Below the pieces are notes generated by a model, which was given only the letters and a program-made list of their open reading frames with translations, was not told the DNA's origin and ran no database searches. A stretch of DNA of 64,000 nt, taken from contig CM097885.1 of the NCBI GenBank assembly GCA_044892525.1, positions 67,270,001 through 67,334,000 of the forward strand. Direction: 5' to 3'. Origin of the DNA: Schmidtea polychroa (lineage: Eukaryota). Shown one piece after another: positions 20,001-60,620 of this stretch. The position numbers and the translations under genes are program-made. Numbering within the stretch: the stretch's first letter is position 1; every line of letters starts with the position of its first letter.

Positions 20001-23000
20001 AACTGCAGTGAACCTTCATCAAGCAAAGAAGTAGCTTCTTCGCATTTGAAGAAAAATCACTTTCAGGAGAAATTTTAAAGGGATCAAAATCACTTGAAAA
20101 ATCTTGTGCCGAAAATTAGTGAATATCAAAAAGCACATCGATATTTTTACTGATTCATAGTCAATTTTTTAATAAATATAAACTCGAATTTCCTGTCAAT
20201 ATTTATTTGATTGTTATCGTTTTTCAATTCTAATTGTTGTGATTCTTCACAATTTACAATTAAATCCCGTAAATACGTAAGCTTCACATTTCATCATATA
20301 ATCATTATATTCTGCAAGAAATTCTTTTATAACTTATTTCATTAGACACAATTTTCGAAGTAATGGAAATAAATTTCCAAGGTTCAAAACTTTTTATTTA
20401 AACAAAATTCGCAAATCACCAAAATCACTTTTTCAAACAAACAAAATCTGAAATAAAAAAGCATAACATTAAAATTAATTTCCAAAAAACTTGAATAATC
20501 CAAATTAAAAAATCGAAATATCTCGTGAAACCTCGCGTCTATGTGAGCACACAGGATAGAAATACCTTCGCAACGCGCACACAGATGCGACANNNNNNNN
20601 NNNNNNNNNNNNNNNNNNNNNNNNNNNNNNNNNNNNNNNNNNNNNNNNNNNNNNNNNNNNNNNNNNNNNNNNNNNNNNNNNNNNNNNNNNNNNNNNNNNN
20701 NNNNNNNNNNNNNNNNNNNNNNNNNNNNNNNNNNNNNNNNNNNNNNNNNNNNNNNNNNATCATTTAGATGGAGATCAGATCCTTCAATATTTAATTTCAA
20801 GCTTCATTCGGATTCAGTTTTTCGTTCGGAAAACGTGACGAATTTTTTTAGTGGGTTTTTTTAATGTTATGTATAATATTGATATTGATATTTATTTCGT
20901 TATTTTAAGTCTGCTCAATTAATATTTTGCAGTGATTGCACTAAATTGAATCAACATTGTGTAAATTATTAATTTAAAATATGTTAATAAGTTAGAAATG
21001 TTAAAAAGGCGATTAAATGTAGTTTGTGTCATTTACTTATATCACTTGTTAAAGTTCTGTTTTTCGCTTCAAACCTCAAGTAAAATTTTTAATTTATAAA
21101 AATGATTTAGCATCAAATTATAAGGATTTTAGATGAAAATAATACAATAAGTCGTCGACTTAAGTAACATTGATTACATTGATTCAGGTAATGAAATAAG
21201 AAGTTTCACGAAAGTTTTCATTCCGAAATATTTAGGAGGTTGTCCCAAAAGTTATGTGCTGTTGAAATAATCAACTTTTTATTACGTGAGTCTCGTAAAA
21301 AAAATATAAGAAAGTGAATAATAATATGTCAGTATAACAAAATTTTCAGTATTATGCAATTATTCTTTAATTCCGGATAGAGCTTGCAATACCGGGATCC
21401 CGGTATTACCGACATTTTTAATACCGTTCAATACCGGTATTAATGACCACTTAATACCGGTATCCGGTATTAAATTTTTTTGCTGTAAGTTAACATTCAT
21501 ATCATTTTTATTTAACTATTTTATTTTTTATAAGTAATTAGCATATGTTTAGGTGTTGTCATGTTTAAAGATTAAATCTAATTTTGAAATTTAAAATCAT
21601 AATTATAATTAATAATCATTAATTCAATTGATAAATAGCAGATAGGTAAAGGTAAGTTAAAAGTGTGAAAATTAATTATTGTATAAGTAAAATTTTTATT
21701 TTCTATATATTTATATAGATAGCGGCGCTATCATAGCGCACTGCTGCGGTTTTTTTAAAAATTAAAAATAATAAAGAATAGCAAGATTTCTGCCGTTTTA
21801 ATAAGTGGGTACAAATATTCAAAAAATTCTGTAATTTACTTAAAGTTAAAACGCTGTTTTTTTAGCCATGGAAAACTATGTTTTTGAGGAAAAATCAGCT
21901 GATGAAAATTCCGTATGGTTCTATTTTCTTCGTGAGAAAAAGGGACAAATTTCAAAATGTAAGAAGTGTAACAAAGTAATAAAGACGCAAGGAGGTAGTA
22001 CAAGTGGTTTGCATACCAACCTAAAGACACTCCACCAAATTAATTTAAAAAAAAGGAATGCTCCGAGCTCCAACCTCCTGATTGAAATTGAGCCAGAACC
22101 ATCAACTTCTAAAGTGAACAAAGTTTCTAGCGGGAAAATAACAACATTTTTCGTTTCGGAAACGGACAATTCTTTGCCTGCAGTTTTTGCTCGTATGACG
22201 GCATGTGACGGTTTGTCGTTTAACATATTTTGCACTTCCGTGGATATCAGAAAAGGTTTAACTGCCAGAGGGTATGAAAATATACCAAAATCTATAAACT
22301 CTATAAAAAATTTAGTTGTGCAGTACAGTGAAAAAATTCGTGCAAATATGATTAAAGAGTTAGAATCTCAAATTCTTTCGGGACAACGATTTAGTCTTAC
22401 ATTTGATGAATGGACATCGGTAAAAAACCGACGTTATTTAAATATAAATGTTCATGCTGGCATCAAGAAATTCTGGAACCTAGGATTAGTTCGCGTGCAA
22501 GGATCATTGCCTGCAGAAAAGTGTGTTGCCATCGTTGAAGAAAGGCTTAAATTATTCCAAGTTTCTTTAAATAAACACATTGTGTGCATTACAACCGATG
22601 GTGCATCTGTCATGACCAAAGTTGGAAAGTTGATTTGTGCAAGGAAACAACTTTGCTTAGTTCACGGAATTCAATTGGCTGTCATTAAGGTTTTATATAT
22701 AAATATGACACACCAAAATTTAGAAAATGAACATTCTAATTGTAACGTATACAAGTAGTATACAAGTATTATATAAGTGATCAAAATGATAGTGATCTTG
22801 ATGATAATAGTTTATCCATACTTCAAGAAAACAATGCAATTGACTGTTTAATTATTCATGAACAGATAGGGCCATTGATTAAAAAAATAAGAAAGGTTGT
22901 GAAGCTATTCAGACGTTCGCCAATGAAAAATGATAAAGCTTTACAGAAACATGTTAAAGAACAATTTGGAAAGGAACTGAATTTAATTCTAGATTCTAAA

Positions 23001-26000
23001 ACACGTTGGAATAGCTTACTTGCCATGCTAGAACGCTTTGTCCAGTTAAATAACTGCATACAAAAGGCTTTGATTGATTTAAATTTAAATGCCGAAATAT
23101 CATTTTCGGAAATTGATTTTTCTTTAGCATCATCAGTTATTTCAGTTCTTCTTCCAATCAAATTAACTGTTGAAGCTTGTTGTCGTCAAGATGCTACTCT
23201 TCTTATCGCAGATGCAGCTTTACTATTTATGTTTAATCAATTGACAGAACAGAATACTGCTTTAAGTAATGAATTCAAAGAAGAGCTAATTATTCGTATA
23301 AAACAAAGGCGTACTGATTTATCGAGTCTACTACAATACCTGCACAATCCTACTGAATCAGCAGATGACGACCAAAATGAAATTTTTAATCGAATTAACA
23401 ACGCAACAATTATAAAAATAATTATAAATTTATTGGAACGCTTATATACTATCGATGTCATCGATATTGAAAACATAGGAGCCTCTTCCATCGACGTTTC
23501 TGAGTTACCTGCTGATTCTGAGCCAGAAATTCTAAGTTCGATGACAATGAACGAAAACCTAGAAATGGCAATTTCCAAGAAAGTTAATGTGATGAAGACT
23601 GCGAGTGGAATTTCAAAAACGATGAATTCTAAAGTACTTTATAAAGTTATAAAACAGGAACTAGCATACTTCGAAGTAGAACATATTAGAGGAAAATATC
23701 TTCAACTAGTATATGACTGCCTTATGTCCATACCACCAACTAGCGTCGAGTCCGAAAGAGCCTTTTCAGCAGCAGGGCTGTTGTGCACAAAAATTCGATC
23801 CAGCTTAAGCGACAAAACTCTTGATAGTTTAACATTTTTGAGGGCATATTTTAAAGGCAAATCACAAGTTGTGATTCACAACAATAGGACATAGGACTTA
23901 TTATTCTTATATATTATTAATTATATTATTACTCTTTTTTTATTTTATATTTTTTTTGTCTTTTGTGGCACTTTAAAAAAAAGTTTATTGTTTCGAATAA
24001 TTCGTTATTGAATTAAATATATTTTTTTCTATTTTTTGCGGTGTAGTTTTGCTTTTTTTGTTTTTTCTTAAATACCGGTATTAATACCGGGATCCCGGTA
24101 TTAATATAATGAAATACCGAAATACCGGTTTTGAAAATTTGATCCGGTATTGCAAGTCATAATTCCGGACCTTGAGTCTCGGTTAATTTTCCACAAATTT
24201 CGAAATTAAGGAATACATTATAAAAGGGATTTTGATAAAAATTTTGAAAAAATTTTTTACACTCAAAAAATATATTATATTATTGAGATATAATTAATTT
24301 TTAAACAAACTATTTCAAAAATCAATATAATTCACAGTTTTTACAACAAAACTACGACTTTTCTTGGGAATAATTTCTCAAAAAATACGAAGAAATTCTT
24401 GACAATTTCATAATTATGAATTTTAATGAAGTATTTATAAAGATATTAAATGATACAATTTCAACTATTTTATGCCTTCAGAATTGTATCCTTAGAGACT
24501 TAAATAGGGAGAAATACAAAAATAGTCATTCAACATTTTTTTACTTATTTTATTTATTTATAAAGTATATTCTCCTTCTTTGTTTTACTTCCATAATTTG
24601 AAAAAATGTGTATATACAATTTTTTCTCAGTGATGAGCAACTTCTTTTGGTAAAAGGCTAAATTCAAAACATTTACTCATCCTAGCTCGACTTTATTGGG
24701 CTTGCACATTTAATGTCACTTTGAGTCATAAATATAAATTATGTAGAGACATAAAATTCCATAACTAAATTATAGAAATGAACAATTAAAAAGGCAATAA
24801 ATCTCCTACTGGCTCAAAACGAGAGTATTTTGAAACATCAATATTCATTACCTTATATTCGCAGAATCATCTGTAAGGTTGACGCCCGTTGATTAGAAAG
24901 AACTACTTATGTTTAAATCTGGAATAAAACTAAAATCTATTGATAACAAATATATTCACTGCCGTCAAAATGATAATATTCATGGAAATGTATAAATTTC
25001 TGTATGTATTGGTCAAGAAATTGAGCTAGTCACTGAAATAGTCATGAACTAAAAGGATTGAAAACTCCTTGTTTGAAATATAGGACTGTTTTAATTTCAC
25101 TAACCCATTAAAAACCCTTATACAGGTTTCTTTTAAACTAAAATACCTTAATTCGTGAGTTTAGGTGGTTTAGTCTAGTCGAACAGTCAAGTTAATCTTT
25201 ATAAATTTATTTCGACTTTGGTTGGGTTGTAAAAAGACAATATTGAGTTCGATACTTTATGTCAAATTAATGAATTCTTATTCTTTTTTGATATCTTAGA
25301 AATAAAATGGCATTAATTATATATAAAATATCGGTTCACTTTAATCCTCTACACCAGTGATTCCCTTTGGTTCCGCGAGATTTCGAGCTCTGGCACTAGA
25401 TATTTTCAGAAATTTTAGGAATTTATTAAAAATAAGAGTATTAACAAAAAGTAAAGACACTTTCGGTAAATTTAATGGATTTTGAGAAAACGAGAAAGAT
25501 TGCTGGTGGTTGACTGTTAAGATCTTATTGTCATTAGTTATTTACTGGTTAATTATAATGATATTGTTATCGGTTGTGATTAGAGGGTGCCTTTTCCCGG
25601 GTTTTTTCTGTTCCCGTGAAACGGGAATTTTAAAAAAAAATTTCTGGGAATCCCGGGAATATCGGGAACAGAAAAAAACCCGTGAAATGTTTTCTGGAGA
25701 AAAAGTTATAACTTTAATATAACAAAGGCATGTTTTTAACTAGTTTTAAAATAATATTCTATCCAATAAATAAATACATATTAATTGTATCTTTTTAAAT
25801 TTATTGGTTTAATAAATAAGTTTTTAAAAAACAAAGACAATCAAGCGAGTAGTTGCTTAACGAAGTTCTTTTTTTTGTACAAAAATTTGACGACGCCGAG
25901 ATACCTTTTCACTTTTGACCGAGCTGGTGAAATGCATCCAACAAATCTTGCAAATTTTTTGTTATATTTTTTGTACAACCGTATATTTGAAATTCTTGTT

Positions 26001-29000
26001 TTAAATTTTTTGTTTGAGTACCTGTAAATCTTTCTTCAAACCTTTTAGTTTTTAATGCTGCATTTATGGCACCATTTAGCCTTTCATTTATATCTAGAAC
26101 TAAACAGTTTTGAGCTGCAAATGAATCTTCCTCACAAAGTATATCGTCATCAACACCAGCGCATTGATTCTCTTTTTCGAATAACCGTATAAATATTTTA
26201 TTAGCACAGTGAATAATGTAGCCATTGATGATGAAGGCAAGTAAATCTAGTGTGTGAATATACTTAATCAAAGTTACAAGATGTTGATTTCTCCGTTCTC
26301 TAATAGGAATAATTAGAACGTCCAACAACTCTTTTAAGATATTACCGTATTTTCGCGCATAAACCCCGCATACGCGCATAACCCGCACACGCGTATGCCC
26401 TGCACAAATTACAAAATAAGTAAAAACAAAATCGTACGACCGCACCCTTATATACCCCGCATGTGCAAAGTGAGACTTGCCGTAAACTACCAGTACATAA
26501 GGTTGTTGCTTATCAGACGTCTGTCCCTCGAGACGCAATCGTACTGCAGTTGTTGTTCCAACAAGCGATACATGGAGTGCAACACGCGTGTGAAATACGA
26601 TACGAGCCTACGTCGTATCTGTAGTATGTTGTTTTGACAGAAAGTCGTTGACCTAGTTATCTGGTGATGGTAGGAGAAAGATTTGCTGCAGCAGCTGAGC
26701 TGGGCCCTACGATTGGCCTGATTGTGCATCGGCTGGTGCTCGGCCTTATTGTGTAGGCTATTAATTCCTGGGGTAATCAGCAGCACGGGTATTCTTGTAG
26801 TTTGAACTTCGTAGCGTATAGTGTGCAGCACGTGCAATTAAAGTGTATTAAAAAAAGTGTATAAATTCTAATCAGTACTCAGTAAAGTCTTTTAAGCCTA
26901 AAAATGCCAAAGCGTAGTTCATATACAGCCGATTTTAAGCTGCAAGTTTGTGCAGTTGCTGCTACAAAGGGCAATAGAGCTGCTGGAAGACAGTATGACG
27001 TTGATGAAAAGTCAGTTCGCGAATGGCGAAAAGACATTGAAAGTCTACAGCAAATTAATCCCCGCAAAAGAGCTCGTCGATGGGGAAAGGTTAGATGGCC
27101 ACAGCTGGAGACAAACCTCGCAGCGTGGGTTCGCTCTCAGCGTGAAAACAACAGGGCAGTGTCAACTGTTGGTATCAAACTGAAGGCGAAAAAAATGGCT
27201 GCTGAAATGAAGATGGATAATTTCACTGGTAGCAACAACTGGGTTTTTAAATTCATGACACGTAATCAGCTGTCGGTTCGTGCACGGACAACTGTTGGCC
27301 AGAAACTGCCAGAGAATTGGGAAGTGAAAGTTAACGACTTTCAGGAATTTGTTAGAAAGGATATCGTTGAACAGAATTTAAATCCTTCTGCTGTCTATAA
27401 TATGGATGAGGTACCCATGTCTTTTGATATTCCGGCAACTCGCACTTTAGCGGAAAGTGGTTGTAAAACGGTTGCTATTACCACAACTGGACATGAACGC
27501 ACCTGCTTCACGGTTGTCCTGGCGTGCTCAGCTGCCGGTGAGAAGTTGAAACCATTGATTATATTCAAAAGAGTGACAATGCCACGTGAGAAACTGCCTC
27601 AGGGAGCAATCGTACTGTGCAACAAAAAAGGATGGATGAACACGGACGTGATGAAAGAGTGGACTGAACGATGCTTTCGTGCTAGACAGGGTGGATTCTT
27701 TCTGTCAAAGTCGTTGTTGATTTTTGATGCAATGGCTGCACACAAAGAGCCGTCTGTTCACAAACAGATCAATAAGACCGGTGCGCACATTGATGTCATT
27801 CCGGGTGGCTTAACGTGTAAGCTTCAGCCACTTGACATCGCTGTTAATCATCCATTCAAGTGTTTTGTCCGCAACGAATGGGAGAAATGGATGAGTGAAG
27901 GAGAACACACATTCACACCATCAGGAAAGCAGAGACGTGCTACGTACATTGAAGTATGCAAATGGGTTCTGGCAGCGTGGCAGCAAATCAGCACTGAAAC
28001 TATTCGCAATGGTTTCAAGAAGGCTGGCCTGCTAACAGTTAGTGAAGCTAATTCAGAGCCAGCAGTAGAGGGCAGCTTCATTTCGGCCGGCAATGTGAAC
28101 GCTGATACTGACGATGATGATAGTGATGAAGAGTCGATTTATGACCCAACTGCTGTTGCCAACATGCTTCGCTTATTTGAAGAAGACAGTGAATATGATA
28201 CGAGTTTCGATGGCTTCACTAACTATAGCGAGGACAGTGACATTAGTGAGACTGGCGATTGATTGCGGCTGTATTGCATGCATTGTAGTCTATACGTTTC
28301 GACACTACTGGTATCGGCAAATTAGTTTAGTTGCTTACCTACTTGTTACATTTGATTACTAGTATATTAAAGATTCTCTGCCGCATCGGTACTATTTGTT
28401 TTCTTGAGGTTTATAATGAGATGTTCATAAAGCTTTCCAATGTACATTTCACAACCACACAGCGAACTATAGGAGGTATAAAGACCCACCGGTATGTCCA
28501 TAGTTTCCGTTATGCTATGTTTATGAGTAAAATAAATTTTGTAAACCCCGCACCTTTGTATACCCCGCACAGCTGCCATTCGTTTGGAAAAACTTGTATA
28601 ACCCGCGGGTTATATGCGCGAAAATACGGTATTGTTGTTTCCACGCAAAGAATCAAATAAAAATTTCAAAATCGCATCGGCTGTTACAAGATTTGCATCC
28701 CGTCTACCTAATGCTTCAAGAGCTAATTTAATGAGCTGCAGTGCGCTCTAAACATTTGACAATATTAAAATGCTATTTTCATTCAGTAAAGTAGGCGAAC
28801 CTAATACATTCAATGCCTTCCGAACTGAGTCAATAATTTTTAAAAATCTTTCTATCATGGTGACAATGCTGTTCCATCTTGTCTTACAATCTAAAAGCAA
28901 ACTCAGTTTTATCCCATGCTTTTCTTTGACATGTTCTTTAAGTATGGAATTTCGTTTTAGTGATCTTTTAAAAAATTTTACAATATTTCTTATCATTTTC

Positions 29001-32000
29001 AATGCCTTATTAATATCATCACGTTTACGATTTTTGGTTCTAGCATCATTTGGTTCAACATCACCATCAGAGGCAGAAAGTTCATCGGAAATCGAGCTAT
29101 ATTCATTTTCACTGGTATCACTTTGATCATCATTATTTACAATATCTTTTTCCGTTTTTTTATAAATTACATCAATAACAGCTAAATGTATACCATGATT
29201 ATAACATAACTGGTGAATATATTCGGATAATATTCCAAATCTTACCAAGACGGCAGCACCATCTGTGGTCGATACCAAAATCTAGTAGCTTTGAATTTAC
29301 CAATTCCTCTGTTTTTTCAGATGTACAACTTCCTTCGATTGCCACTAATCCTAAGTTTATATATTTAGTATCAAAATGAACATTTATATTGAGGTAGTGC
29401 CGGTTTCGTAAACTAGTCCATTCATCTAATGTAACACTGAATTTACCACAAAGATCTTTATGCGATTGAATTTTTGCTACCACCTCACTTTTTGCAGACT
29501 TATAAAAGTCATGAATTAATTTGTCTTTGGGGCGTGGTTCTTGTTGTTATCCCATTCTGAGTTCTTTAGTTCTTCAAACAATGCGCCATAATCAACATCG
29601 TCTTGTTGATCCCCATTGTCAATAGTTTTTTCCCATAAATTTACATAATTTTCAGATGAATAATCTATTGTAAAATCACTGGAATCTTCGTTTACAATCA
29701 TAATAGGGTTTAAAAATTGAAAAATAATTAAAATTATTGACTATTTTTAGGAAATCATTTTTTGAATATAAAGGAAATATTTTATCATCAAAACACACCA
29801 TGAAAAAAATTTACAAGGCCGTTTCATAATTATTTTCATTTTTTATAATATTTTACCTTACCAAAATTCACTGGACATCATATGATGTCCAGGGGTTTGG
29901 GGTTAGAAAATTCAGAACATCATATGATGTACAGAGTAGTTAAAGGGTTAATAAATCCAATACCAAGAGAAATTAAAACTACCGTATCTATCAAAGGAAT
30001 TCCCACGGAGTTGTATGCTATTTTTAATTTATTGTTCAGGTTTACTTGTTGCTAATTTATTAAATGCATTTTCATAAACAATTAACATACAATAATTTAC
30101 TAGAATTTACCCGTATCTGTCAGCGATTCATCAATACTTTTTAATTTTAATTGACAACTTAGCATTATTATTTTGTTACTATTTGAAATCAACTTTCCCT
30201 ATTATTTGATGCATAATTTGTTCAATGTCATTAAGTAGATCTTTTATAACTGCTACATGTTTTTGTAAATATTTTACGAATTCATTTATTATAAGAATTA
30301 AAAGAATACATTTGTTTAAACCTTTAGATGGAGATGCAGATAAATCCGAATACTATTGAATAGACCTTGTTTTTAATATCTACTGAATGTATTATGTTCA
30401 CTTGGTCGTTCTACATGTGTTTCAAATTTTCAAATTACTATTATATCATATATCTTTGTTTTTACGGATAATTGACACATTTTCTGACTTTTTATGAAAT
30501 TTACTTCCGTACTTAATATAGTTATAATTCACTTGAAAAAGGCAGTGCTGAAAATTCGTGAATATCAAAAACATCGATATATTTACTGATTCATAGTCAA
30601 GCTTTTTAATAAATACAATGGAAAAGAAATCAGTGGTGAAATTTGAAAAAAAAGTTGTTATAATAATTATTTCATTTTATAATTTTAATTATTATAATGC
30701 AATTAAAACAAAAAAATACAAACAATATCAAATAATACTTCTTATTTGTTTATTATTTTAATAATTATTTTAATAACTTCTGTAATTATTATACAAAATA
30801 TATTGTCTACTTTGAAATCGTTACAGACATCTATAATACTCTGCCAACATATCCTAAATGAAAATTTGTTTATTTCCTATATTTTGTCGAGTATAACTTA
30901 TTAGAATGCTGTATATAATCTCATTACAATATTCGGGTTGCAGTTACAAGTGGGGAAATTTCATTCGAAATTTATTCCGTCTTTTATCCCTATAAGAGAT
31001 AAATCTTACATTGAATGTTTAAATATTTGGAAAATAATATTCCACTTTTATTATTGAAATGAGAGAAGCTTAATCAAGATGAATGAAATGTAATTTAATT
31101 TTATTTCAGCAAAGCATATAAGTAGAACTTCAAAATTCTGTGGGAATATGTTTCAATCTCTCTAGAATGAGCGTAGACTAATTAAAAATCTGATTATTTT
31201 TGCGTGTCGTAAAATGATTTTTAGAATATTATTTCATTTAGTAAATTATTTGTATATTTATACTATTACGAGAATGAGTTTTAAAACTCAACATTTTCCA
31301 GTTACTTCATTCCATCCCTATTAGACTTACCGTATATACTCGCGTATAAGTCGAGTAAATTTTAAGAGGTTTTTAAGTCCTAAATTGGAAACCCGCGTAT
31401 AAGTCGAAGTAACAAAAATAAAAAAAAGGTTTAATGATTTCATTAAAAATTAATTTGTACGTTTTTTGACCCGCGTATAAGTCGAAGTGGCTATTTTGAC
31501 TTGAAAATTTGACGTAAAATTCTCGACTTATACGCGAGTATATACGGTAATAATTATGTATAAGTTGGTGCACACTAGTTGAAGTGAGTCACCATTTACG
31601 TTTAAATGAAGTTATTCAATTTCTTAAAAATGGTTTTCAGGTAATTTTTTTAATTTCAAGTAACTTTTAAGACTTGAATTTTGATTTTATATAATTATGA
31701 GATCATTATAAAAAATCATTCTTAAATATTACCTTTTTCACGGATATTAAATTATTTGTTAGGAATCGAAAAATTGAAATTTTGGAGGCCGTGCAATTTT
31801 GTTGGAATAGGAAAATTAGCATTTCTTCTAAAGTGGAATAAAAATTGGCTTCGACGAAATCCAATAAATTATTTCCCTGTTCTTCTGAAATAATTTGTTT
31901 TCTGCCACCTCTTTTCCCTTTGCTAACTGCCTCATATTTTTTATATTTATAAATGATTGCTTTAATTGAAGGTTTGGTCATTCCTAGTAATCTTCCAAAT

Positions 32001-35000
32001 TCTTGGTAATTTTCCCCATTCCCAAAGGCATTAATAAACCGAATTTTGTCATTTTCTGTATATCTATGAAAATATTAATTTATTAAAATAATTTATTTAA
32101 ATTTACGATTTGCGAATTTCTTTCTGTAAATCAAAAGAGGTCGAAGGACCTCCTTCAATATTTGAAATGCTACCTTCACACATACTGTAAAATATTTTAA
32201 TGTTTTGTAATTTAATGAATAAATCTTACATTGTATTTTCTTCTTTTTCTCTTAAGCTCAAGGTAGAGCTGTCGGATTCTAAATTAAAAGTATTTTCTTT
32301 TAATAATTTTTTAATAATTTCAAAATAACTATATTTTAACAATATTTTAACGGTTATTTATTTCGGAACAAAAAACACTAAGAAATTTGCATGCATTTTT
32401 CATTGTGTGTTTTTGTGTTGGTGTGTTCAATTATTTTTCTTTCACCTTCACAAATTCTATACAATTCTATAGGAACAATAAATTTCTACACACAGGTAAA
32501 TGAGTGTGTTCCTATACTGTAAATTTATTGATTTTTTTAGATTATAGAAGTTACTAAATTTCGGAATTAGGTGTATCTATTGCAATTTGTAATACCGCCC
32601 ACAAATTTCTTGCCTTTCTGTGACATCAAGGTGTGCAAAATTATGAAAAAAATTTAGATTGGCTGTGCACACATTCTTGAGTACTTCCAGATTTATGTAG
32701 ATTATTTTGAATTAAATTAAATTTGTTTTCTAGAATTATTTTATTTTCAGTATACACACATTTGTAATTTGTCACTTTGCGCATTAGTTGTCATCGTGCA
32801 TTTTATTGATTGTTTAAAACAATCAAGTTATTTAATAATTTTCTTTTTTATTTCGTTTTAGGGAGATTTTTTCACTATATTTATTTAATTATTTTTTCTT
32901 ATTTTCCTTCTTGATTTCTGTACTTATTTGTCATAGCTCCTTCGTGTGCAAATTCGACTGATAACATTCCTTATTAATTTGATAGTGGTCCTTCATATGT
33001 AAATACGACCAATAATCATTCTTAATTTCTCATCTTATTAATTTGTTCTTTCATTTATTATTCTCTTTTCGAGTTGGCAGATTTTTCGAATGCATTGTTT
33101 TTCCCTTAGCAGTGTTGTTTATAGTAATTCCTTGTGTTTGTCATTTGTTTTCCTCGTTTCGTTGTCAATAAAGTCAAGAAATCGCATCACAAAAAAATGA
33201 TGCAATACTAGATGTGTATATGTAATTATTGTGATATTTTTGGCAATCACAAACCAAATTACAAATTTATTTTCTGTTATAAAAAGTTCTGTCTACTTGG
33301 AAAGTAATGGGAGAGCTGTGGGCTTAAGTGCTCATTCTACTACATAGCTTTAAATTGATTTACAAAAACTAGCCCTACATTTCTAACATTTTCGAGGACT
33401 AGGCCTGCTGGTTGAGAAACACTGATATATTATATGTATAAAATAAAAGTATACTTGGTGATAATTATGTATTTTCATTTTCTGTACTTTGCCTAAATCC
33501 AGCAAAAGAAATTCTTCCCGCATTTCCTTGCGAAATTGATCAGCCTATTCTAAAGCGTCGGCGTTACTATGATATTCATCTTTTCTCTATTGTATTTCCA
33601 TGTCTAAACTGCTAGGATGATCCATGTTTGAAATTGAGGAGTGATAGCTTTCTTAGTTTTCATCATAAATGTAATAGCTTTGTGATCTGTTCTTCGTATA
33701 AAACCTTTACCATATAAATAATTCTTAAAATGATTCGTAAACTTAAATATAGATAACAATTTTTTTCGCTTAATTAATGTTTATTCGTGGTCCGAGATCC
33801 ATTCGCAAAGTCTTTTTCTTTATTTCCTGTTTGAGATAATACAGCACCGATGCAATCAAAGCTAGCATCTGTATCCAATATGAACGGCTTAGTAAAATCT
33901 GGAAATTTTAAAACAGGTATAGACGTTAATTTTAGTTTTAAATTTTGAAAAGAACTTTCACAGTCATCTGTCCACAGTAGTTTCTTTTGTTTACTACCAC
34001 ATAGCGCTTCTAATACTTTTGAGTCTTTTGTAATATTTTCTATAAATCTACGATAATAATTTGCTAGGCCTAATAATCCTCTCAAACTTTTTACATATTT
34101 AGGTCTATCAAAATTTTTAATAGTTTCTATTTTGCTTTCGTCTGTTCGTAATCCATTTTCTCCAATGACATGACCCAAAAACTTTACGTCATTCTTTTTG
34201 AATTGACATTTAGATGAGCTTATTTTTAGGTTTGCTAATTTAATATTTTGAAATACTTTTTCAAAAGTTTTATAACGTTCATCTAGTGTTTTGGAGAAGA
34301 TAAGGATATCATCAAGATAGACAATTGCTCCTTTCCAGTTCAATTTGCCAAGGACAAGATTCTTAAGTCTTTGAAATGTTGCTGGTGTAAGAGCTATCCC
34401 AAATGGCATTCTAATGAAGTACTACTGCTTGTTTTTCGTTGAGAATACGGTCTTTAACTTTTAAGCTTATTGAAGTTCTGCCTGATAATAAGCATTCCCT
34501 AGATCAATGGTTAAAAAAATTAGATCCATCTATTCTTCGGTATTTGGAATTTATTACATTATTCAAAGCACGATAATCAAAACATATTATTATATCACTA
34601 CTGTTTTTTCTTTTTAACGCATACTAATGTTGAATTCCAAGGTGATGTATTTCTTCAATCTTTCCTGTTAAATGCACTGGTTATCGTCTAGGGTTGATTA
34701 CAATTGGACTACCTTTTGTAATTATTTCCTGCTTTAATAATTCGATCTTTCCAACGTCTCATTTATATTTCATAAAAATACAGCTATAAACATTTATTAG
34801 ATTATTTAAGATTTTATCTTTACAAATATCGCTATTAAATAAATTTTCAGTAATTACATTTATATTATCTTCACATTTCTTTATCAGCAATTTAATACCA
34901 ATTTTTTTAAAAAAATCTATTCCCCCTATTAATTTTGTATTTATATCTTTGGGTACTACGAATTCCACTACTTGGATTAGAAAAATCTTATCTATTTTTA

Positions 35001-38000
35001 CTTGTTTCAAATTTCAATTGTGCTGTCGTTTGCACATCTTAACTTCAAATTACTATTGATGTTCGTTATATTTAAATCAATGACATTATTTAGTGATTGT
35101 TATAATAAATTTGAAAGTTACACTTTGTTTTTTCCATTACTCAATAGAAGCACTTTGGAATTGATGAAGAGATGTAGAAAATTAATGAAAGAAAAACTAT
35201 CAATTATTGGATTGGATATGTGTGATATAAACTGTGAAGTTGGTCTATTTCGGTTCTTGCTTAGATGGTGTTCAGATCTTCGTTTTGAATATATATGTCA
35301 TGGGTGCAATGCCACATACATTGGAAATTGATTAATATTAATAAACACAATTTTGTGAAAAATTTATTGAAATGTTGTTTGATTTCAGCTTTTGTGAATT
35401 TTAAAAGTTTTAAGATTTTAAAACTTTTATAATTTTTAAAGTTTGAATTGAAAAAACAGAATTTTGTGAATTTTTAGCGAAATTAATTTTAAAAAAATTA
35501 ATGAATTAGTTAATTAGTTTGTTTAAAAAAGAGCAATTTAGATTGATTTAGTTTGAATTTCAATTCTACCTGAAGATGACAGTGATTCTGTCGAAATATG
35601 TTGTAGTAAAATATATATATTGGATTTGGTGCTTTTCGTTATACTATTGGTAAATTGAAAATTACCAATTTTTTAAATAATACTATCATCGATAACAGTT
35701 ATCTTAGCTCCTGTGTCTAAAAAAATACTATTTTTACATTATTTATCAATACAGTGACACTCGGTCTTCTTTGCAATTTATCATATACGTTATTTTCTTC
35801 TTCGCATTTGAAAACGCTTATTTTATATAAATAATTAAATTTATGTGACGATTCTTTAAAAAATCCATCCATACAATACTTGTCAATATATATGCTACGG
35901 TCAATTCGATTATTCTTGGCATTATTAATAATGCCCGGTCATTATGAAATATGACTGGTCATTGTGAATAATGCTGGAAATTGAAAGGCCAATTTGAGAA
36001 ATTTTACGACAAACTAGGATAATTTTAATAGGTCAATATTAATACCAATATTAATACCAATATTAATATTAATAGAATATTAATTAACCGATGTTAACGG
36101 ATGTAAGTGATATGAAGCATCGTTTCGACGAACAACTGAATGAATCGTACTTATCCAAAGGTCAGAATACACAAATTCTCACAAAACTACAATACTTGGA
36201 GTTAATAGAAAAGGTAGCAACCATTTTTTCTCTTCTTAGAATTTCGTCTTTGGTTCTTCGATATTTTCTGATATTTTAAGAATATCTCACAATCTTACTC
36301 GTCTGAGTCCCTTAAACACACATTTATTCATTATATTTAAGATTTTAGAGTATACAAATAAAAATTTCCTTTATAGGGCATACCATAAAACCTTGAACGC
36401 AATGTACATCCGTATGTTACCGACCTAAAATGAGTTGAAAAAGTGTCTATTATACTTCAAATTTTGCGGTAACTCTATCTAACAAATAAAAAAGAATGTG
36501 AAAGTTAAAGAAGATTATTCGGAATTATCAATAGAATTTGTGTGAATGAAATTGCAAGTTTAATTGTTTGCATAAATTGTATTTTTATTCTCAAACTGCA
36601 AATTAATTCTTTTTCAATTAACTCATTTCCAATTAGTTTTTATGAATAATAATATATTTTATTCCATTATTTATATAAATTTAATATTTCAGATAATCAC
36701 AAAGACATCATACCTGGGTATACGATTCTAGATACTGGTTCCGGAAGGGTAAGTTTTCATCACTTCTATAAATTAATTGCAAGAAAGGCTCCTTTTTCAT
36801 TAAAATTAAATTGATATTTTTTATTGTTATACTTTTATTGAAATATGCGATGGTTAAGGCGCAGGAATAATATTTGATTCTCATACTACATATGCACATA
36901 AGACAGGAACCCATAAAACGTTCCGCATTGTCCAAGCCAACTCATAACCTTTCATGCAGATGTGCTCGGGTTGAGTCGGATAAATCTTGAATTACCAGAT
37001 CTGCATTTGAAACGTGTAATTGTGAACAATTTGGTTCGGGAATGAAATTTTCAAAAGATACATTACGTAACAGGATGATTGTCAAAAATTTGAAAAGTGA
37101 ATTAAGAAATTTTTATTAAAAATCTTAATGATAATTGAATATTATTATATTTGCGACCGGCGTCTCTTTATTCATGACTTGCTGGTCATCTGTTTCATGG
37201 TCTGTGAATGTCTCTGCACTAGATATTTTATGTTATTTGTTTTGCATGAGATGTTTTTTTGCTTTTTGTTTATATGTTCTTCAATTACCAATTAGTAAAT
37301 TTTATTTAAAGATTTTTCCAATTTACAAGTTGAAACATAAAAAAGAGTCGCAAATCCTTTATTTTACACTTCATTCAGAGAATATTTTTTCAAGTATTTT
37401 CCTTCGTTAAATTTTTTGATTTCTGGTTAGAGAAGAAATTTGTGTGTTTCATATGCAATTCTGTTTAGCACTTTTATTCAAACTAATTAATTTATATTGT
37501 ATGTATAAAAATGACAAAAATATATCAAAATAAAAATCTAGTGAATCCTTCTAAATTTCATCAAATTTTTCGTGAGTTTTCAGAATAAGTGAAAAAATTT
37601 TTAATATTTGTCAATTATAATTCAGATTTTTCTCTAAATTTTCAGTGAAATCGATTCTGTTTAATTAAATCTGAATTTTACAATGAAAAAATTATTTTGT
37701 ACAATGCCATTTTACCATTGTCGTGTTTGTGATGTCCGTTAGGTGAAAGATCAAGGTAGTTTTGCCATTTTAGTGCAGATTGTAATAAGATATAATTTGA
37801 TATTAAAATCCAAGATTTATTTATAAAATCTGCTGATTGACATTGATCGATTTGATCGGTTTCTTCAACTTCAGCAACTTCTTCTGATGATTCTATTTCT
37901 TCATCAACTTCAATGATGTTGTTGAATTTAATTTGTGAATTTCGGAAAGTAAAATTAAAGTATATATATTAACAAATATATTTTAATTACTTATTATAAT

Positions 38001-41000
38001 ATTTAATTTTAATATATTAATATCTTATAAATAATAATAAATTTTGTATGATAATTCTGATATTGTGACCAGCACATAAATTATGTCGTCAAATGTAAAA
38101 TATCGCAGTGTCATCAAGTCCCTTGTTTTGAAAGGCATTGAGAATAAATTAGAATAAATCATTCAACACCTACAGTCGATTTACAGCTGGATTGGAGAGT
38201 TTCCGATGAAAAATGACAATTGTATCAGAAAATGGTTCTCTCTGAATGCAGAATCAGTATCAGCTAACTAGCGAAACGTCTCTACATATCAGTACTTTCC
38301 CTACTCATTGCATCTTAAAGGATTTTGGCATCAGGAAACTCTGTTCGCTCTTTGTTCCTAGATTCATTAATGGTAAAATTGCTGCTCATTGCCTGGCTTG
38401 ATGGATATTAAAATATGGCGATGCTTTTCTTCAAAACATTGTAGACTTGAATTCCAAGTGAATCAGCCATACGCAAGCTCCTCAGTGGTGCATTGCATGG
38501 ACGGGCTGCCATTCTGACTGTGTTCTGGAACATTCGCGGCATCAATAAAATGGAATTTCTGGATCGTAAAGCCACAATGAACTCCCAATATTATAATGAA
38601 CTCATGCGTATTGTGCGGAAACGTCGATGAAATTCTCCAAGCCTGTGTCTCTGGTTGTTGCATGACAACACTCCAATTTATACTTACTTTCTCTCCACGA
38701 CCACAACAGAAGAGGTGCATTTCATATTGTAGTGCACCCTCCATACAGCCTGGATCTTGCTCCCAGTGATTTTGTGCTATTCCGTCATCTCAAAAACATC
38801 TAAAAGATCACCATTTTTAATCCGATCTTTCTTGATCCAAATTTCTTCGAAAATGCATTTGTGGAGCTTCTTTGTCGCTGTTAGAGATATGTGGAGGAAA
38901 ATTGCTTTTATATTGAGAAATGATCTATTGTTGGAGTATGTAACTGTAATAAAAATTTGAAACTGATTTGACTTTTTAATCTTGCCGAGTTCAGACTTAC
39001 CTAATACACCACGTATTCAAAGTCAATGTCGAATTTACCCTTGTACTTTGAAATTTAGGTCTTCTTTATCTGTATTTTTTCTCAGAAAAAAAAGGAGCAC
39101 ATAATATAACTAAATAATAACAAAAATAATTTTTTAAAAATTGTTAAAAAACAGCATACGAGTAGCAAAACATTTGTTATTTTATATTTTATAAAAATTT
39201 TAATTATACAATGCTTTTAAATATCCCTAATTACATATAAATATGTTGTTGAAAAAATGTTTTATATGTATTTTATTTTTTGAATTTATTGAATTCTTTT
39301 TATATTCATCTAGATATATTAATATTAGTACCTTTAGAATTACTTTAATATTTTTCATATGCAATTCAACAAATGCAACATCCTTTTCAAAATGAAATTC
39401 CTGAAAAAATACCAAAGTTTTACTCAGGGGTTCAAAATACAAAAATGTTTTTAAAAAAATAATAATAGACTTCTCGGACTTATAATCCCTTTTTTATTAT
39501 ACTTGTTCATGGAAGTGTCTCGAAATTAGTTTTTATATGAAAATTTGAAGTCACAAGTATAAATAGTTTTGCATTTGATCTGAGTTCACTTGAACAGAAC
39601 TTTTTTTTAATAAAAATAAAAAATATTTTTTAAAATTAAGATCTTCGATCTTACATTTTTGGTGTTTCGTGAGCTGCATTTAAATAGCTCGAGGACAGCA
39701 TTTGGCCCGCGAGCCACACTTTTTGAGCCTTAACCACCAATAAAGTTTTTAATTGATTTTACATCTCAGCATCAACTGTTCTGACTATTTCTATTTTTGT
39801 AAAACCCCTTATAATTTTCCGCTTCAAATGTTTTTAAATAAATAATTCCCCAGGAAATTATTAAAGGTTTTACGTAATGTCTTAATTGTATACAAATAAG
39901 TACAAATTAGCGTTGTTTTAATTTAAAAAATCTTGATACGACTACCTAAAATATAAATCCGGTTTTGAACATTTGAATTAAATTTTTAATTTTATAACAT
40001 TGGCAAATATTTCTGAAATTTTATTTTTATATTTGTACAATAAAATATTTATTGTTATTATTTTATTAATTTTTGTTTAAATTAATATATATAAAAAAAT
40101 CAAAATTTTCAATTTTTGTTTTAATTTTTTATCTATTTTTTGATATTGAATTAAATTTTTTATTTATCTAAATAAAAAATTTGGAAACATTTTTTAAAGA
40201 GCCTTATAATTCTTATCACATATGCTCCAAATTTCATAATATGTGTTACTGATTGTGGGTTTAGGATATTCTCTCCTTCCCTCTATGTTTCCTTTGGGTA
40301 TTGAATATATGCTCTTGAAAAAAATAAATCCTATAATATAGCCAATAAATATTTCTGTTGTTTTATTCAACTGTTAAATGAACTGTTAAATCGGTTTACA
40401 GTTACAATTGAACTGGTGAAATGCTATTTTCCTTGTGATCGTGATCCCAACTGATTCTATATTCAAAACAACAGTAACAATAATTATCTCATTTGGTGAT
40501 ATATTCCAATTATCTCCACAAAGAAATATTAATTATTCCCAATGGAGAAATTCTTAAACCACACGTCAATTTCACTGTTATTTTTTTCTGTTGTTTTAAC
40601 TAAGTAGTTGGGAACAGTTCCATTAATTAGCAACAGGAAAGACTTTTGATGGGAAATATTTTTGTATTATTAAGAAGGAAATATCCCAATAAGCGATTTG
40701 TTTAATAAGTAATTAACGCATTTAATTATATTTACATAATGAATTTATCATTGACAATTTAGTTTTCATTTCTTGTCCTTGTCCTCGTTGTTGTCGTGCT
40801 GATTTGTAGCATGCACTCATTGGTAGAATTCTATGATGACGAAAAATCGATGTCGTGTTAGTGTGTTTATGCGGAACCAATCTGAATTTGAGTCGTTTTG
40901 CTTTTGTATCTATTTGTCTGTGTGTTGTTGAGTGGGTGGATAGATGGATATCATTCTCATTTTTCTCCTTTGAGATTTTTTGATGAAAACAAAATGATTT

Positions 41001-47033: not shown

Positions 47034-50000
47034 TTAGGACAGATGAAATGCAAGTGGCTACAAATATGGATATTTATACCGGACATATGATTTTGGTAAA
47101 AATAGAATAATTGAAATTTAATTTCTGATAATTCCTTCAGTCCTATATGGAGAAACATCAAAAGAATAAAGACATCTTTCAATCGGAATGGAATTCGATT
47201 CTATCATATGAAACTGAAGATGCAAAAACTGAAGCTGCCATAGAAATTGAGAATCTCCCTAGGAACCGCTACCAGGATAAAATACCATGTTTGTTTTATT
47301 ATTTTTATTAACAGAATAGAATATTTCACACAATTATAGATGATAAGAGTAGAGTGGTACTGAAAAATACAAAAAATGGCAATTATATTAATGCTAGTAT
47401 CATTGTAAGAAACTAAATGGTAATGATAATAAAAATGATTTATTTTTGTATTGTAGGTGGATCATGATCCCAAATTACCCGTATATATTGCAACTCAAGC
47501 TCCTTTGGAGAAATGGGTAGCAGAATTTTGGCAAATGGTCTGGGAACAAGGAGTAGTGGTTATTGTTAATTTAACTGAAATGAATGAGAACGAATCCGCT
47601 CATTATTGGCCTAAAGAAGGATCTCAAATCTTTAATATTTACGAGGTAAACATTTTTTGTCTATTCTAAATAAATGGCGTAATCAATTTCTTGTGAGTCT
47701 GAAGGATACAACAACGGGCAAGAATATTAAAGATGTGATTCTAAAATGTGCGGAAGATCGACAGTTAGATTTTAAAAAAACTTATTGGTATTACAACCGA
47801 TGGAGCACCGTCTATGATAAGGGAAAATATAGGATCAGTTGCTTTAATTTGCAAACATATTGAAAGTTTGGAACAAAATTAATCATTTTTAGATTTATTT
47901 ATTTGTCATTGTTTTTTACATATAGAAAATTTATGTGCTCAGACATTGAATATGTCTCATGTGATATCAGTTGTCATTAATATTATTAACAGAATAAAAA
48001 ATTATTCATTAAAACACCGCCAGTTTCAAGAATACCTTTGGGAATTGGAGTCCGAGTACTGTGACCTAATATATTACGCCAAAATACGATGGTTGAGTTG
48101 TGAGAAATGTTTATTAAGATTTTGGAACCTCAGAGAAGAAATTAGAATTTTTATGAACGAAAACGGCGATGACGATCCACAATTATACGATGAAAAATGG
48201 TTGCTGGATTTGTGTTTCGTAATAGATATCATAACTAAAATAAATGAACTAAATCAGAATCTTCAAGGAAATAAATTATTGCAAAATTGAAATTTTATGA
48301 AAATCAACTGAAATCGAATAATGCCACCAATTTTCCTCATTTAAATGATTTCGAAACGCTAAATAAACCTATTTCCCAATATTCAAATAATATTAGAGAT
48401 CTTCTTGAAGAGTTTCAAAAAGATTTGCTCACTTACAAAAATTTGAGCAAATGTTCAATAATTTCAATTGTCCATTTAATATTGATGTGAATTCAGCTCC
48501 AGATCAGTTACAACTGGAACTTATCGATATACAGTCAAACTCAGATATGAAATTTAAGTTTGAGGACATTAATATAGTAGATTTTTATGCAAAATACATG
48601 CGCGTACGCAGGGGGGGGGGTTACTGGGGGTTTAACACCCCCCATGATTCAAACAACAATATAAAAAACTATAATTAATAAATATATAAACTTAAAACAA
48701 TTTAANNNNNNNNNNNNNNNNNNNNNNNNNNNNNNNNNNNNNNNNNNNNNNNNNNNNNNNNNNNNNNNNNNNNNNNNNNNNNNNNNNNNNNNNNNNNNNN
48801 NNNNNNNNNNNNNNNNNNNNNNNNNNNNNNNNNGCAAAAATCTTGAAACCAACAATATATATTTAATCAAAGAATTTATAAATAACAAGTTTTAATTTTT
48901 TACAAAAACCGCCAACTCCAAATTATTTAAACAAAAAGATATCTAGCTAGTGAAAACCAAAGACCGTAACAGGATTACCGATGCAAATTTGACGAATCAA
49001 TTACTACAAAATTAACAGTTGATATTAAAAAAATTTCCAATAAAATAAATAAACAAATTTCTCGTTAAATTTCTAATGTAATTTACTTAAATATACATAT
49101 CATTGTTTATATCTGTGTACGTGCTCGTTTGTGCGTACCTATCTCTTTTTTGCACGGGTGGGCTAAAATTGAAATTTGTTTGTTCAGGGGAGTGCGGCCC
49201 AGTGCCTTTTAAATTACTAAATTTTGGGTTAAGAGTAATTTGATTTGGACATGGCTAGTTTAGTGCTTGATGAAGATAGCTAAACTGTTAAAATATGTTT
49301 CAAATATGTATTTTAAAATGGTGTTTTTTTTGTTAATATGAATAAATTACAAGTGTAATTATTTAATATTATGTCTTCAATTTTTGCTCGAATTGATTCT
49401 TTATCATAAATCATATTTTTTTTTAAATAGGTCAATTTGGTGTCCGAGCATATATGGAGCGATGAATATTTGGTGAGAAATTTCTATTTGAAGAATTTAA
49501 ACAATACGGAAACCCGAACTGTTACACAGTTTCATTTTATCAGCTGGCCAGTTGATAAATTACCAAGCAGCTCGCGTTCAATTTTGGAGTTTAGAAGGTA
49601 ACAGTACTAGTAAAATACCAATATTAGTAATAATTTTTGAAAATTTCCTTATATCCATATGTAAAGTATGAATTATAAATTTTAAATTTATGTTGGCTAT
49701 TTTTAAAAAGAAATATGTTTCATTATTAGATGACAATGGGTCAATATTTGTTAAGAGTCAGACAAATTTAAACTTACATCAATTATAGCTTTTCCTGCAA
49801 TTTAATAATTTTCAAATTTTGTATTTTAGAATTGTAGAATTATAAAATTATAAAATTATTTTGAAATTTGTTTGGCTTTGTTTGGTTAGTCACAAATAAG
49901 TGAATTTATATATTTTTTGTAATTTTTTATTTTCTAAATTTCAGACGTACAGAATCTGAAAAAAATTAAATTGCAAGCGGCTTACAAAGGCTAAGTTCAC

Positions 50001-53000: not shown

Positions 53001-56000
53001 CAGTGCAACCCCTTTATTTTGTTTATCAGTAATTTCGAAATATCAGTAAAATGTTTTCAGGTAAGTCCAGCAAAATTGATTAATTATTTTAATTCTTTAT
53101 TAACTTTTTATTTTCTCCAATTTCAACTGTTTTCTGACTGCTGCTTAATTTAGCACTGCCATTTATTCATAGACAAAAGTGATAAATTAGAGTCGAGTAA
53201 AAAATGTGAAAATATGGGACATTAATTACCATTAATCATGTATTTCTTTTTAATCATCACAATTTTCTATCCTTAGAAGAGAAATATTTTTGAATCTGTT
53301 TTGTACTTTTTGAAAATTTGTATTATTAATTTATTTCATACTTAACAAATATATACACCTAAACCTCGATTTGCGTTCTTAATTGGGACCGTAGAAAGTC
53401 GACGCAAATCGAAATCATTTATCGTATGTGTTTATACCAGTTTTTCATTAATTTGTATCTTGTAGTAAATTTCATGAACAAATCCAATTTTTATTAATAA
53501 AAACATGTTTTATATCATAAGTTTTATATCAACAAAAACTTTAATTCATTATAAATTAAATAAATAAAAAACCTAAAATATTATTAAATTAAAACAAAAA
53601 GTTCGCTAAATTCATAAAAATTATTATTTTTACATTTGATAATTTTTTAAATCCTTTAATTCATTTTAAACTTAAATACCTCACATTGTTGCATGATTAA
53701 TCTTTTTTGTTTGGTCAAAATAAATTTTATTTGCGGTCCCTGAAAATTTTACATCTTAAAAAATTATTAAAATTTATCAATGCTAATTGAAATTTTAACG
53801 ACGCAACTTTGAAATGACGAAAATTAATTAATGACGCAAATCGAGGTTTAGGTATATATGTTCTTAAATATCGTTGATTAAATGATGTTGTTAAATGTTG
53901 TTATGTGAGAGTTTGTAGAGCCCGGCAGAGTCTCCAGTAAAAGTATCGGGACAGTCGGAGTGCATGTATGTAAATTAATAATTAATTTGCGACTACGTTA
54001 ACAATATTTATATATTTATCAAAAAAACAATATAATCTTTATAGATCAATTGTCTAAATTACCGTTTAAAAATTGTCCTTCTATAAATGAACGGATTAGT
54101 GGGATGTCCAATACCAATTTCTGTTAAATGATATAAATTCTTTGAGTATGTAGGATCCGCGCGGAATCGTGGCAATACAAGAATTTGAAATATGATAGTA
54201 ATTTATATTCCAAATATAATTCTTTATTAATATTGGTTGGACTTTCTTCTATGTTTTATATATATATATATATATTAGGGTGGGTCGAAAAATTTTTTTT
54301 TCTCCAAACATGCATAAAACGTTGTGCTTATGCTAGAAAATGAAATATCCCTGCAAAAGACTGCTGTTTAAAAGGGTTTACAGGTCCCAACTTTTGTTTG
54401 TATGTATTAGTACTATCCCAGTAAAAATGCTCGCACACGTGCCATTGTAAATTCATCCTGCAAGCAGTCACACGCTTGCAGAAAGACCATTTTTGACATG
54501 CTCTATTCACAAGTCCAAGCTAACGCGTGCATGTATAGAGAGGTTAATTCACGGAAGCACCTTCACACAAGCACTCACAAAGACAATTTCTTCTGAACAA
54601 TACTAACACAAACACTACAGTCAACACATAATCCACATGGATACTACTAGTCAGTCTAAACTCAGATAATTTAATTTGTTTCGATTGGATGTCAAGTGTT
54701 TGCTGGACCTAATTAAAAAAGTTAACTTGATGATTCACTTTTATTTTGCCAGAGCTGAGTACAGAAGAGCAGTTATGAAGGGACAGAGAAATAAGCAATT
54801 TCGCAAAACAAGAAGTAAATCACGTCATTGTCTGTTTGGTCAAACTTGTGAACTACCCAGAAACCAATTACCTACTTGTGAAGATGTGTTTCGTGATTAC
54901 TGTTACAATGAGAAATGTACACAATTTCATACTGGCTTTAACGAACAAGCAACTCTTCTCACAAATAAGGTGAAGGAAATTTATATGAAGGCAAGTATCC
55001 CAACTGTTGAGTTCAGTAGTATTGTGGTTCGTGTCAAGCGACTAATATCAAAAGTGCGTGAATTAGAGAAGTATCCAGAATGCAAGAGGTCATCTGCCAA
55101 ATTTCAAGATAAGTTAAGCTCGTTTTCCAAATTGTTTGACATATGTTGCTGCAAATGTTTTAATGATGGTGCTCGTGGAAGAAGTCAGTGTACATGCCGA
55201 TTGGCCTTGAAAATTCCTACCTTAGAGTGGGAGTTCTGGATTGACCAACAAACTACCAGAAACATGAAAATCGGAAATACGGACAGACAGGAAACCTCAA
55301 AATTGAAGAGAAAACAAACGAAAAGCAGCCCTACAGGAAAAGGAAAACAAATGAAAAATGAAATAATGGACACTGAAGTTAACGATCTACATCCGACCTC
55401 AAGAAGTGACACGGAGAGTGAAGCCGCTAGTGATGAAAGTAAAGATAAGTTAGACAATTCAACAGAAAGCTCAGAGTCAAGCGTAGAAGAATGTGATGAA
55501 TTTCAAAATAGAAGACATTATCCTGAATTAAGTAAAGCTGTTGACAGATGTGGTGTGAGCAACAGAGACACGTGTTTGCTAGTAAACGCTTTTCTGAAAG
55601 ATATGGAACTGTTATCCTCTCAAACAATCATCGATCCCGCAAAATTACGGCGTCAGAGAAAGTACTGGAGGGAGAGAGAAATTGAACAGCATTCAGCAGA
55701 AGCGAAAAACTTGATTTGCCTCGGTTTCGACGGGAAACAAGATTCCACCTTACTTCATAGAAGGATCCTAAAAGAGGAGCATTATGTGATTGTCGCCTTT
55801 CCAGGGGATACATATATCGATCATGTTGTACCTCAAAGTAGTAAAGCTGTGGATATTGGCAAAGAAATCATGTCAATCATCGTTAGCACGCAGTCCTCAC
55901 TGACCCTTCAAGCAATTGTGTGCGATGGAACCAATACAAGCATTTTCGGAGAAAAGTTGGGAGCAGTAAATGTCCATAAATCTAAGTAAAATGGTTTGAT

Positions 56001-60172: not shown

Positions 60173-60620
60173 ATGACCAGTGAAAATGATGGTATTCAAA
60201 AGTTACTAGCTGCCGAAAAGGAAGCAGCGAAGAAAGTAAATGAAGCTCGAAAACGTAAAATTAGTAATTTTTCATGTGAATGAATTTTGGTTGATTAGAA
60301 AAAGCTAACAAACTACGCAAAGCAAAAGAACAAGCACAAAAGGAGATTGAAACTGAGAAGGCATTGATGGAACGAGAATTCAAAACTAAACAAGAAAAAG
60401 TACATTTTAAATAAAATATTAATAAATTTAGTTAAAACCATATTATTAGATTTTAGGAAGTCGTGAAGATTACGAAAGAAAAATTAAGGAAAATACAGAC
60501 AAGCAAATGAAAGAAATTGTTGAAATGGTTGGAAAAAATAAAGAGAAAGCGATTAAAAGATTATTAGAATTGGTATTAGATATTGAAATGGATGTTCATA
60601 CCAATTTTAGAAAAACCTGA
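60173..60620 (+). CDS. ATP6V1G: V-type proton ATPase subunit G (117 aa, 3 exons)
   Basis: Exons 60173-60254, 60299-60399, 60450-60620; introns 44 and 50 nt. MTSENDGIQKLLAAEKEAAKKVNEARK...LRKAKEQAQKEIE...LLELVLDIEMDVHTNF matches the V-ATPase G signature GIQQLLxAEKxAxEKVxEARK. Absent from the ORF track because it is spliced. Confidence 0.93.

Follow-up and report, generated by a model that had tools for sequence, protein, structure and literature searches.

A Penelope-type minimal hammerhead motif, probably a silent passenger, in an intron of an IA-2-type gene of Schmidtea polychroa

Hammerheads of Penelope-like elements and the motif at 35566-35606

Minimal type I hammerheads are known from the pseudo-LTRs of metazoan Penelope-like elements, and an example from Schmidtea mediterranea stands in the supplement of Cervera and De la Pena (2014, PMC4209133), where its row reads CUGAAGAU, with a stem II and a loop of 5 bases each, in an extracted text that has some letters dropped. 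In that study, single motifs of this class gave no cleavage and dimers gave little. The Poseidon element PAc of Anolis carolinensis (Frangieh et al. 2024, PMC11167929) is autonomous and has been tested in vitro; its hammerhead cut only together with the protein of the element and was dispensable for insertion, hammerhead mutants inserted normally, and in the experiments of that paper no RNA reads ended at the cut site. Non-autonomous Chlamys such as MRC1 (PMC8557442) and the non-LTR retrozymes (PMC7229834) have kept a pseudo-LTR while the coding part is deleted, and they occur as head-to-tail and inverted copies, as do the elements described here; by analogy, the short internally deleted elements of R2 (PMC6765202) are a further likeness. 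Domesticated ribozymes, such as the intronic hammerheads of amniotes and the HDV-like ribozyme of CPEB3, also lie in introns and in sense to the host gene, and they are few in copy number and conserved across species (PMC6765202).

The motif studied here is found on the forward strand at 35566-35606 of the window, by which we mean the whole 64-kb stretch of Schmidtea polychroa DNA that was analysed. Read directly, its 41 bases form the full layout of a minimal type I hammerhead, as the first-pass annotation had proposed. Positions within it are given in the usual hammerhead numbering. Stem I is made up of CUAC (35566-69) and GUAG (35603-06), and it is followed by the core box CUGAAGA (35570-76), an extra U between positions 9 and 10.1 (35577), stem II (GACAG at 35578-82, loop UGAUU, CUGUC at 35588-92) and the GAAA box (35593-96). 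Then come U15.2 (35597), G16.2 (35600), U16.1 (35601) and U17 (35602), and the predicted cut site lies after U17 at 35602, in a GUU triplet. The CUGANGA and GAAA boxes, U16.1-H17 and stems I and II are thus all present, the pair G10.1-C11.1 is G35578-C35592, and all 11 core bases are intact. The old start codon of the Penelope element is at 35576-35578, at stem II of the hammerhead.

The motif was the sole hit of a descriptor scan over both strands of the window, while 100 dinucleotide shuffles gave 0.08 hits per window with the loose descriptor and 0.01 with the strict one. In the whole genome the core pattern matched 2,364 times and its reversed control not once, and a chance match is rejected on these two grounds. 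An Rfam search of 33000-38000 returned no hammerhead family at E values up to 10. A covariance model trained on other Penelope families in the same genome, with 23 motifs, scored the motif at 44.4 bits (E about 1e-11, a rough value), with the runner-up at 18.7 bits. When 17 related motifs were aligned, 95% of the cells were paired and 5 of 11 pairs had changed on both sides, counts that lean towards structure because the sequences were picked by motif patterns, and for which the stem I cells of one row were treated as gaps. Folded as a monomer, the motif is predicted to form stem II alone (z -0.6), and the predicted probability of stem I is 0.00 with either 50 or 150 flanking bases. The motif of an intact Penelope family (family B, below) likewise gives 0.00 for stem I, so that this folding test does not tell live motifs from dead ones. 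A weak core-like string at window position 83 was set aside, having merely a 3-pair A-U stem.

In its core boxes, the extra base between 9 and 10.1, the G10.1-C11.1 pair and the 4-base stem I, the motif is like those of PMC4209133, and the likeness extends to the AU-rich palindromic stem III of the family and to the occurrence mostly as single copies from truncated elements. It is unlike them in the sequences of its stems, in a subfamily where U17 is fixed and U4C is carried by most copies, and in a palindrome that is broken at 16.2 in the window copy. On its sequence and that of its kin, the motif belongs with these minimal hammerheads from the pseudo-LTRs of Penelope elements, and it would work as they do.

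A non-coding insertion within a gypsy remnant

Sibling alignments and flank comparison place the motif in a non-autonomous, Penelope-derived insertion of 583 bases on the forward strand, 35059-35641. Its parts are, in order, a post-tail piece, a GIY-YIG stub, an AT-rich pseudo-LTR, the hammerhead and a short tail, which stops at +66 from the old start codon. The stub, which the first-pass annotation had noted as a GIY-YIG fragment beside the motif, is real. Found by tblastn with the proteins of intact elements, with E values of 1.5e-4 and 0.005, it covers 19 residues (35269-35325, forward strand), 13 of them shared with the protein of an intact Penelope at the lower E value, although Pfam gave no hit for the stub alone. 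The insertion is bounded by an 8-base target-site duplication, TACTATTG at 35051-35058 on the left and TACTATTG at 35642-35649 on the right. Seven relatives of the flanks were compared, and the flanks overlap, as at an empty site, by exactly these 8 bases in five of them and less cleanly in one, while the right flank is absent in the last. Weak internal inverted similarity (about 70%) was also seen in the AT-rich pseudo-LTR, at 35326-35507.

The flanks belong to a broken Ty3/gypsy-type remnant on the reverse strand, with RT and RNase H pieces at 33604-34421 and flank similarity reaching to about 35893. Since this flank is 81-89% identical to its relatives, whereas the siblings of the Penelope insertion align to 35062-35641 at 92-95% identity, the Penelope insertion would be the younger of the two, nested within the gypsy remnant.

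Siblings of two sizes are present, a short form of about 635 bases that has a single GIY-YIG stub and a longer one of about 860-875 bases that has two, and the window copy is the short form minus a further 51 bases or so at 35326. The RT is absent, and proteins of intact elements match only GIY-YIG in all three siblings tested as well as in the window (35269-35325). Some siblings stand as same-strand pairs with their motifs 839-862 bases apart, a spacing that leaves no room for an RT in these non-autonomous units. Tandem arrays beyond pairs were not seen in the subfamily. Unlike the derivatives of the MRC1 and retrozyme type, the subfamily keeps a minimal hammerhead and one or two GIY-YIG stubs, and it bears marks of retrotransposition, namely target duplication, 5' truncation and an optional tail. 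In the longer sibling form (e.g. L044, L054, L066 and L068) the two stubs lie in a row, L044 and L054 can be read for about 250 codons before a stop, and the most numerous branch of the subfamily is the one with U4C.

The 3' ends of 40 copies, counted by exact words, fall at +56-75 from the start codon in 18 cases and at +96-115 in nine. Such a two-stop pattern resembles the 30-40 base tail of Penelope elements (PMC8557442, PMC11167929). As in PAc (PMC11167929), stem II of the hammerhead holds the start of the reading frame, the ends of the copies cluster at two points behind the hammerhead, and the target is AT-rich. The subfamily differs from PAc in having no RT, and in its stops near +66-70 and +101-107 versus +111-118.

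Intact relatives and the spread of the subfamily

Intact Penelope elements are found in the same genome. Frames without a stop, 873 and 862 residues long, came out of a protein search; they contain an RT and, at the C-terminus, a weak match to GIY-YIG. Hammerheads stand at both ends of the intact elements L092, L094, L095 and L099, which agrees with the Penelope origin first claimed for the motif, a claim that a lack of related motifs at intact ends would have refuted. Family A (L092 and L093; G000:C1:59829500-59836500 and C1:111244000-111251000) has the frame of 873 codons and hammerheads 2,771 bases apart, whose stem III palindromes are UAUA and UUAA in similar numbers. Family B (L094, L095 and L099) has the frame of 862 codons, 63% identical to that of A, and a hammerhead with a 6-pair stem II that lacks the AUG there. 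The family A motif agrees with the window motif in its extra U and in having GACAG/CUGUC as stem II, and the first codons after the old start in the window are similar to the N-terminal part of the family A and family C proteins. The exact autonomous parent of the subfamily was not found among the intact families, which match it in patches only, at 70-77%. A literature search, mostly outside subscription journals, brought up no publication on this Penelope subfamily.

The subfamily pattern, with loop UGAUU, occurs 241 times in the genome, and the exact 41-mer of 35566-35606 once. The first-pass annotation overlooked that the motif has hundreds of nearly identical sisters. The end branch of the window copy is 0.013 long and its nearest sibling is 95% identical. 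U17 is present in 31 of 32 subfamily motifs, versus C17 in 39 of 41 motifs of intact family A and 16 of 16 of intact family B, and the triplet at the cut site is AUC in those same proportions (39/41 and 16/16). U4C is carried by 120 of 197 exact subfamily matches and U4 by the other 77, the window copy being on the U4 branch. On a tree of 34 rows U4C is a single change; this was so in 69% of the bootstrap trees, and none of 500 shuffles was as low. In vitro, U4C strongly lowered activity, yet it was sufficient for a viroid in vivo (PMC3088659).

From the share of U4C among the exact matches, together with U17 and the laboratory data on U4C, it follows that the subfamily may have spread with a ribozyme core that was weakened but not surely dead, and we regard it as about an even question whether it kept on spreading after U17 and then after U4C had arisen. 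The intact families, in contrast, keep U4 and C17. The subfamily therefore offers a natural test, of modest value, of whether cleavage by the Penelope ribozyme is needed for mobility, and a spread after the weakening of the core would parallel in nature what was seen in vitro, where insertion can do without cleavage. Rare changes are fewer inside the motif (16 of 1,353 cells) than elsewhere (197 of 8,980; p 0.013, with 33 of 39 copies kept), but a reading of this as selection on the motif was set aside, since the copies had been picked by a pattern inside it.

The base that sets the window copy apart is not the one first singled out. U15.2 had been taken as a deviation that gives a wobble, with U15.2C as its reversion, but among the first 100 subfamily matches listed 94 read UAUAUU after GAAA, and the intact families read UAUAUC or UUAAUC there, so that U15.2 is the state of the family and U15.2C cannot be the reversion. 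A published flatworm Penelope motif appears to carry U15.2 as well (supplement of PMC4209133). Among those 100 matches UAUGUU was seen in the window copy only, and the base at 35600 (16.2) is A in all 33 aligned siblings, which makes the G of the window, as read in the assembly, a private A>G change. The palindrome of 15.2-16.2 and loop 3 is AUAUAU in the family and AUAUGU in the window copy, where it is no longer self-complementary. A crippling effect of G16.2 is not apparent, as the six-pair stem III duplex is predicted at -0.8 kcal/mol with either A or G.

The host intron and the question of cleavage

The host gene on the forward strand is of the IA-2/PTPRN type, and for two of its downstream exons the top match in PDB is PTPRN2, also known as receptor phosphatase N2 or IA-2 beta, with E values of 3e-23 and 5e-22. 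An upstream exon lies near 13975. Contigs that join 20850 to 36693 define an intron of 15,842 bases (20851-36692, GT..AG), and spliced contigs also define the downstream exon of 56 bases, 36693-36748. The hammerhead has the orientation of the gene, and 1,086 bases separate its end from this exon, in line with the roughly 1.1 kb stated at first. The joint was present in contigs of all three RNA-like runs X1, X2 and X3, from two studies, and not in one other run; the runs are taken as RNA by guess, and the contigs speak neither of RNA level nor of RNA ends. The spliced contigs mean that mRNA is made, and this is compatible with some molecules being cut. The genome of Schmidtea polychroa is AT-rich and has 781 Mb, and the sense orientation of the insertion in the intron is most simply due to chance.

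Within the IA-2 gene no second intact hammerhead core was found in the window by the descriptor scan or the covariance model, although seven stretches of N, together 1,201 bases, could hide a partner. A second hammerhead-like sequence at 49266-49304 (forward strand), in a later IA-2 intron, is a dead relic and was rejected as dimer partner, for its GAAA box reads AAAA, it has no matching arm for stem I, and it is 13.7 kb away. The triplet GUU belongs to a low class, below AUC and AUU (PMC8879150), and in the predicted duplex a pair between A14 and U17 becomes possible.

Taken with the copy number, the boundaries and target duplication, the nesting in the gypsy element, the kinship with the ends of intact elements and the spliced joint, the motif is very probably the pseudo-LTR hammerhead of a 583-base non-coding Penelope insertion with an 8-base duplication, and a likely silent passenger of the IA-2 intron. 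Of the two readings first offered, that of a decaying relic is the best. The family would be an internally deleted Penelope that has kept the start of its old reading frame, which in the anole element is the region bound by a Penelope protein. An intact element would supply the protein that binds the transcript of a paired non-coding unit, and its RT and endonuclease would copy this transcript in trans, at a nick in AT-rich DNA and beginning at the first of the two preferred points behind the ribozyme, and if the copying halted after about one unit, one hammerhead would be left. In the parent, cutting by the ribozyme would require either a second copy to pair with or the protein of the element. 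Having no partner, a U17 and a wobble at 16.2, the lone copy would seldom or never cut the pre-mRNA.

It could still be that the copy cuts on occasion, alone, paired in trans with sister transcripts or helped by a Penelope protein, at a rate too low to have consequences for IA-2. The core is intact, the anole hammerhead is assisted by its protein (PMC11167929), intact helper elements are present in the genome, and family-like sequence occurs in an RNA-like run, where it is not assignable to this copy. The low class of the GUU triplet, the A14-U17 pair permitted by U17 in the predicted duplex and a stem I that is not predicted to form in context speak against such cutting, and we find it unlikely. 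Less probable still is a weak co-transcriptional cut that tunes the splicing or the level of IA-2 mRNA, for which one could invoke the sense orientation, with the 3' splice site 1,086 bases further on, as well as the intronic ribozyme with an effect on its host that is described for Cpeb3 (PMC10919898). The insertion is a young repeat copy inside another dead element, the motif differs at one of its 41 bases and shows nothing that points to protection, and among more than 2,300 cores in the genome sense intronic copies would be expected by chance. With hundreds of young sister copies and no predicted fold of the monomer, it differs from the domesticated intronic ribozymes. The effect on splicing of the long intron that the first-pass annotation had considered finds no footing in a motif with no dimer partner, a GUU triplet and a spliced joint in two studies, and a role in splicing is unlikely.

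That the unit is a non-LTR retrozyme, which makes circular RNA between two hammerheads, is hardly credible. The same-strand pairs of some siblings would fit it, and a Penelope origin has been proposed for retrozymes (bioRxiv 10.64898/2026.07.22.740005). The retrozymes are, however, described as tandem repeats of roughly 300 bases, each with a canonical type I hammerhead (PMC7229834), whereas the window holds a single, longer copy with one hammerhead, minimal in type, and with remnants of a reading frame, and U4C is present in both copies of two of the three same-strand pairs read.

As a locus the silent passenger matters little, being one of thousands of Penelope ribozyme ends. If the lone copy did cut the IA-2 pre-mRNA, debris of repeats would have become a regulator of host genes. 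We give very little chance to the idea that lone sense intronic Penelope hammerheads, the one in IA-2 included, are, as protein-assisted ribozymes, conditional cut sites used when intact Penelopes are expressed, but were it true, the protein of a retroelement would act in trans on many host pre-mRNAs.

Several other remnants lie in the window. Around the dead relic there is a short repeat of about 115 bases (49256-49370, forward strand) with 73-80% identity to about 20 other places, and one relative of it (L109:1507-1549) reads UUGAUGA with GAAA and U17. The IA-2 intron that holds the insertion also has transposase-like frames on the forward strand at 21850-23891 (302 and 382 codons) and 26886-28259 (458 codons), both with high depth in a DNA-like run. 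A Tc1-type HTH remnant lies on the reverse strand at 31706-32074 (Pfam HTH_SB, E 1e-5), a mariner-type piece on the forward strand at 38451-38630 (Transposase_1, E 1e-7), and a forward frame of 439 codons at 54670-55986 is a further candidate transposon remnant. Just after the IA-2 gene, at 60143-60411 on the forward strand, there are exons that we take to resemble V-ATPase subunit G.
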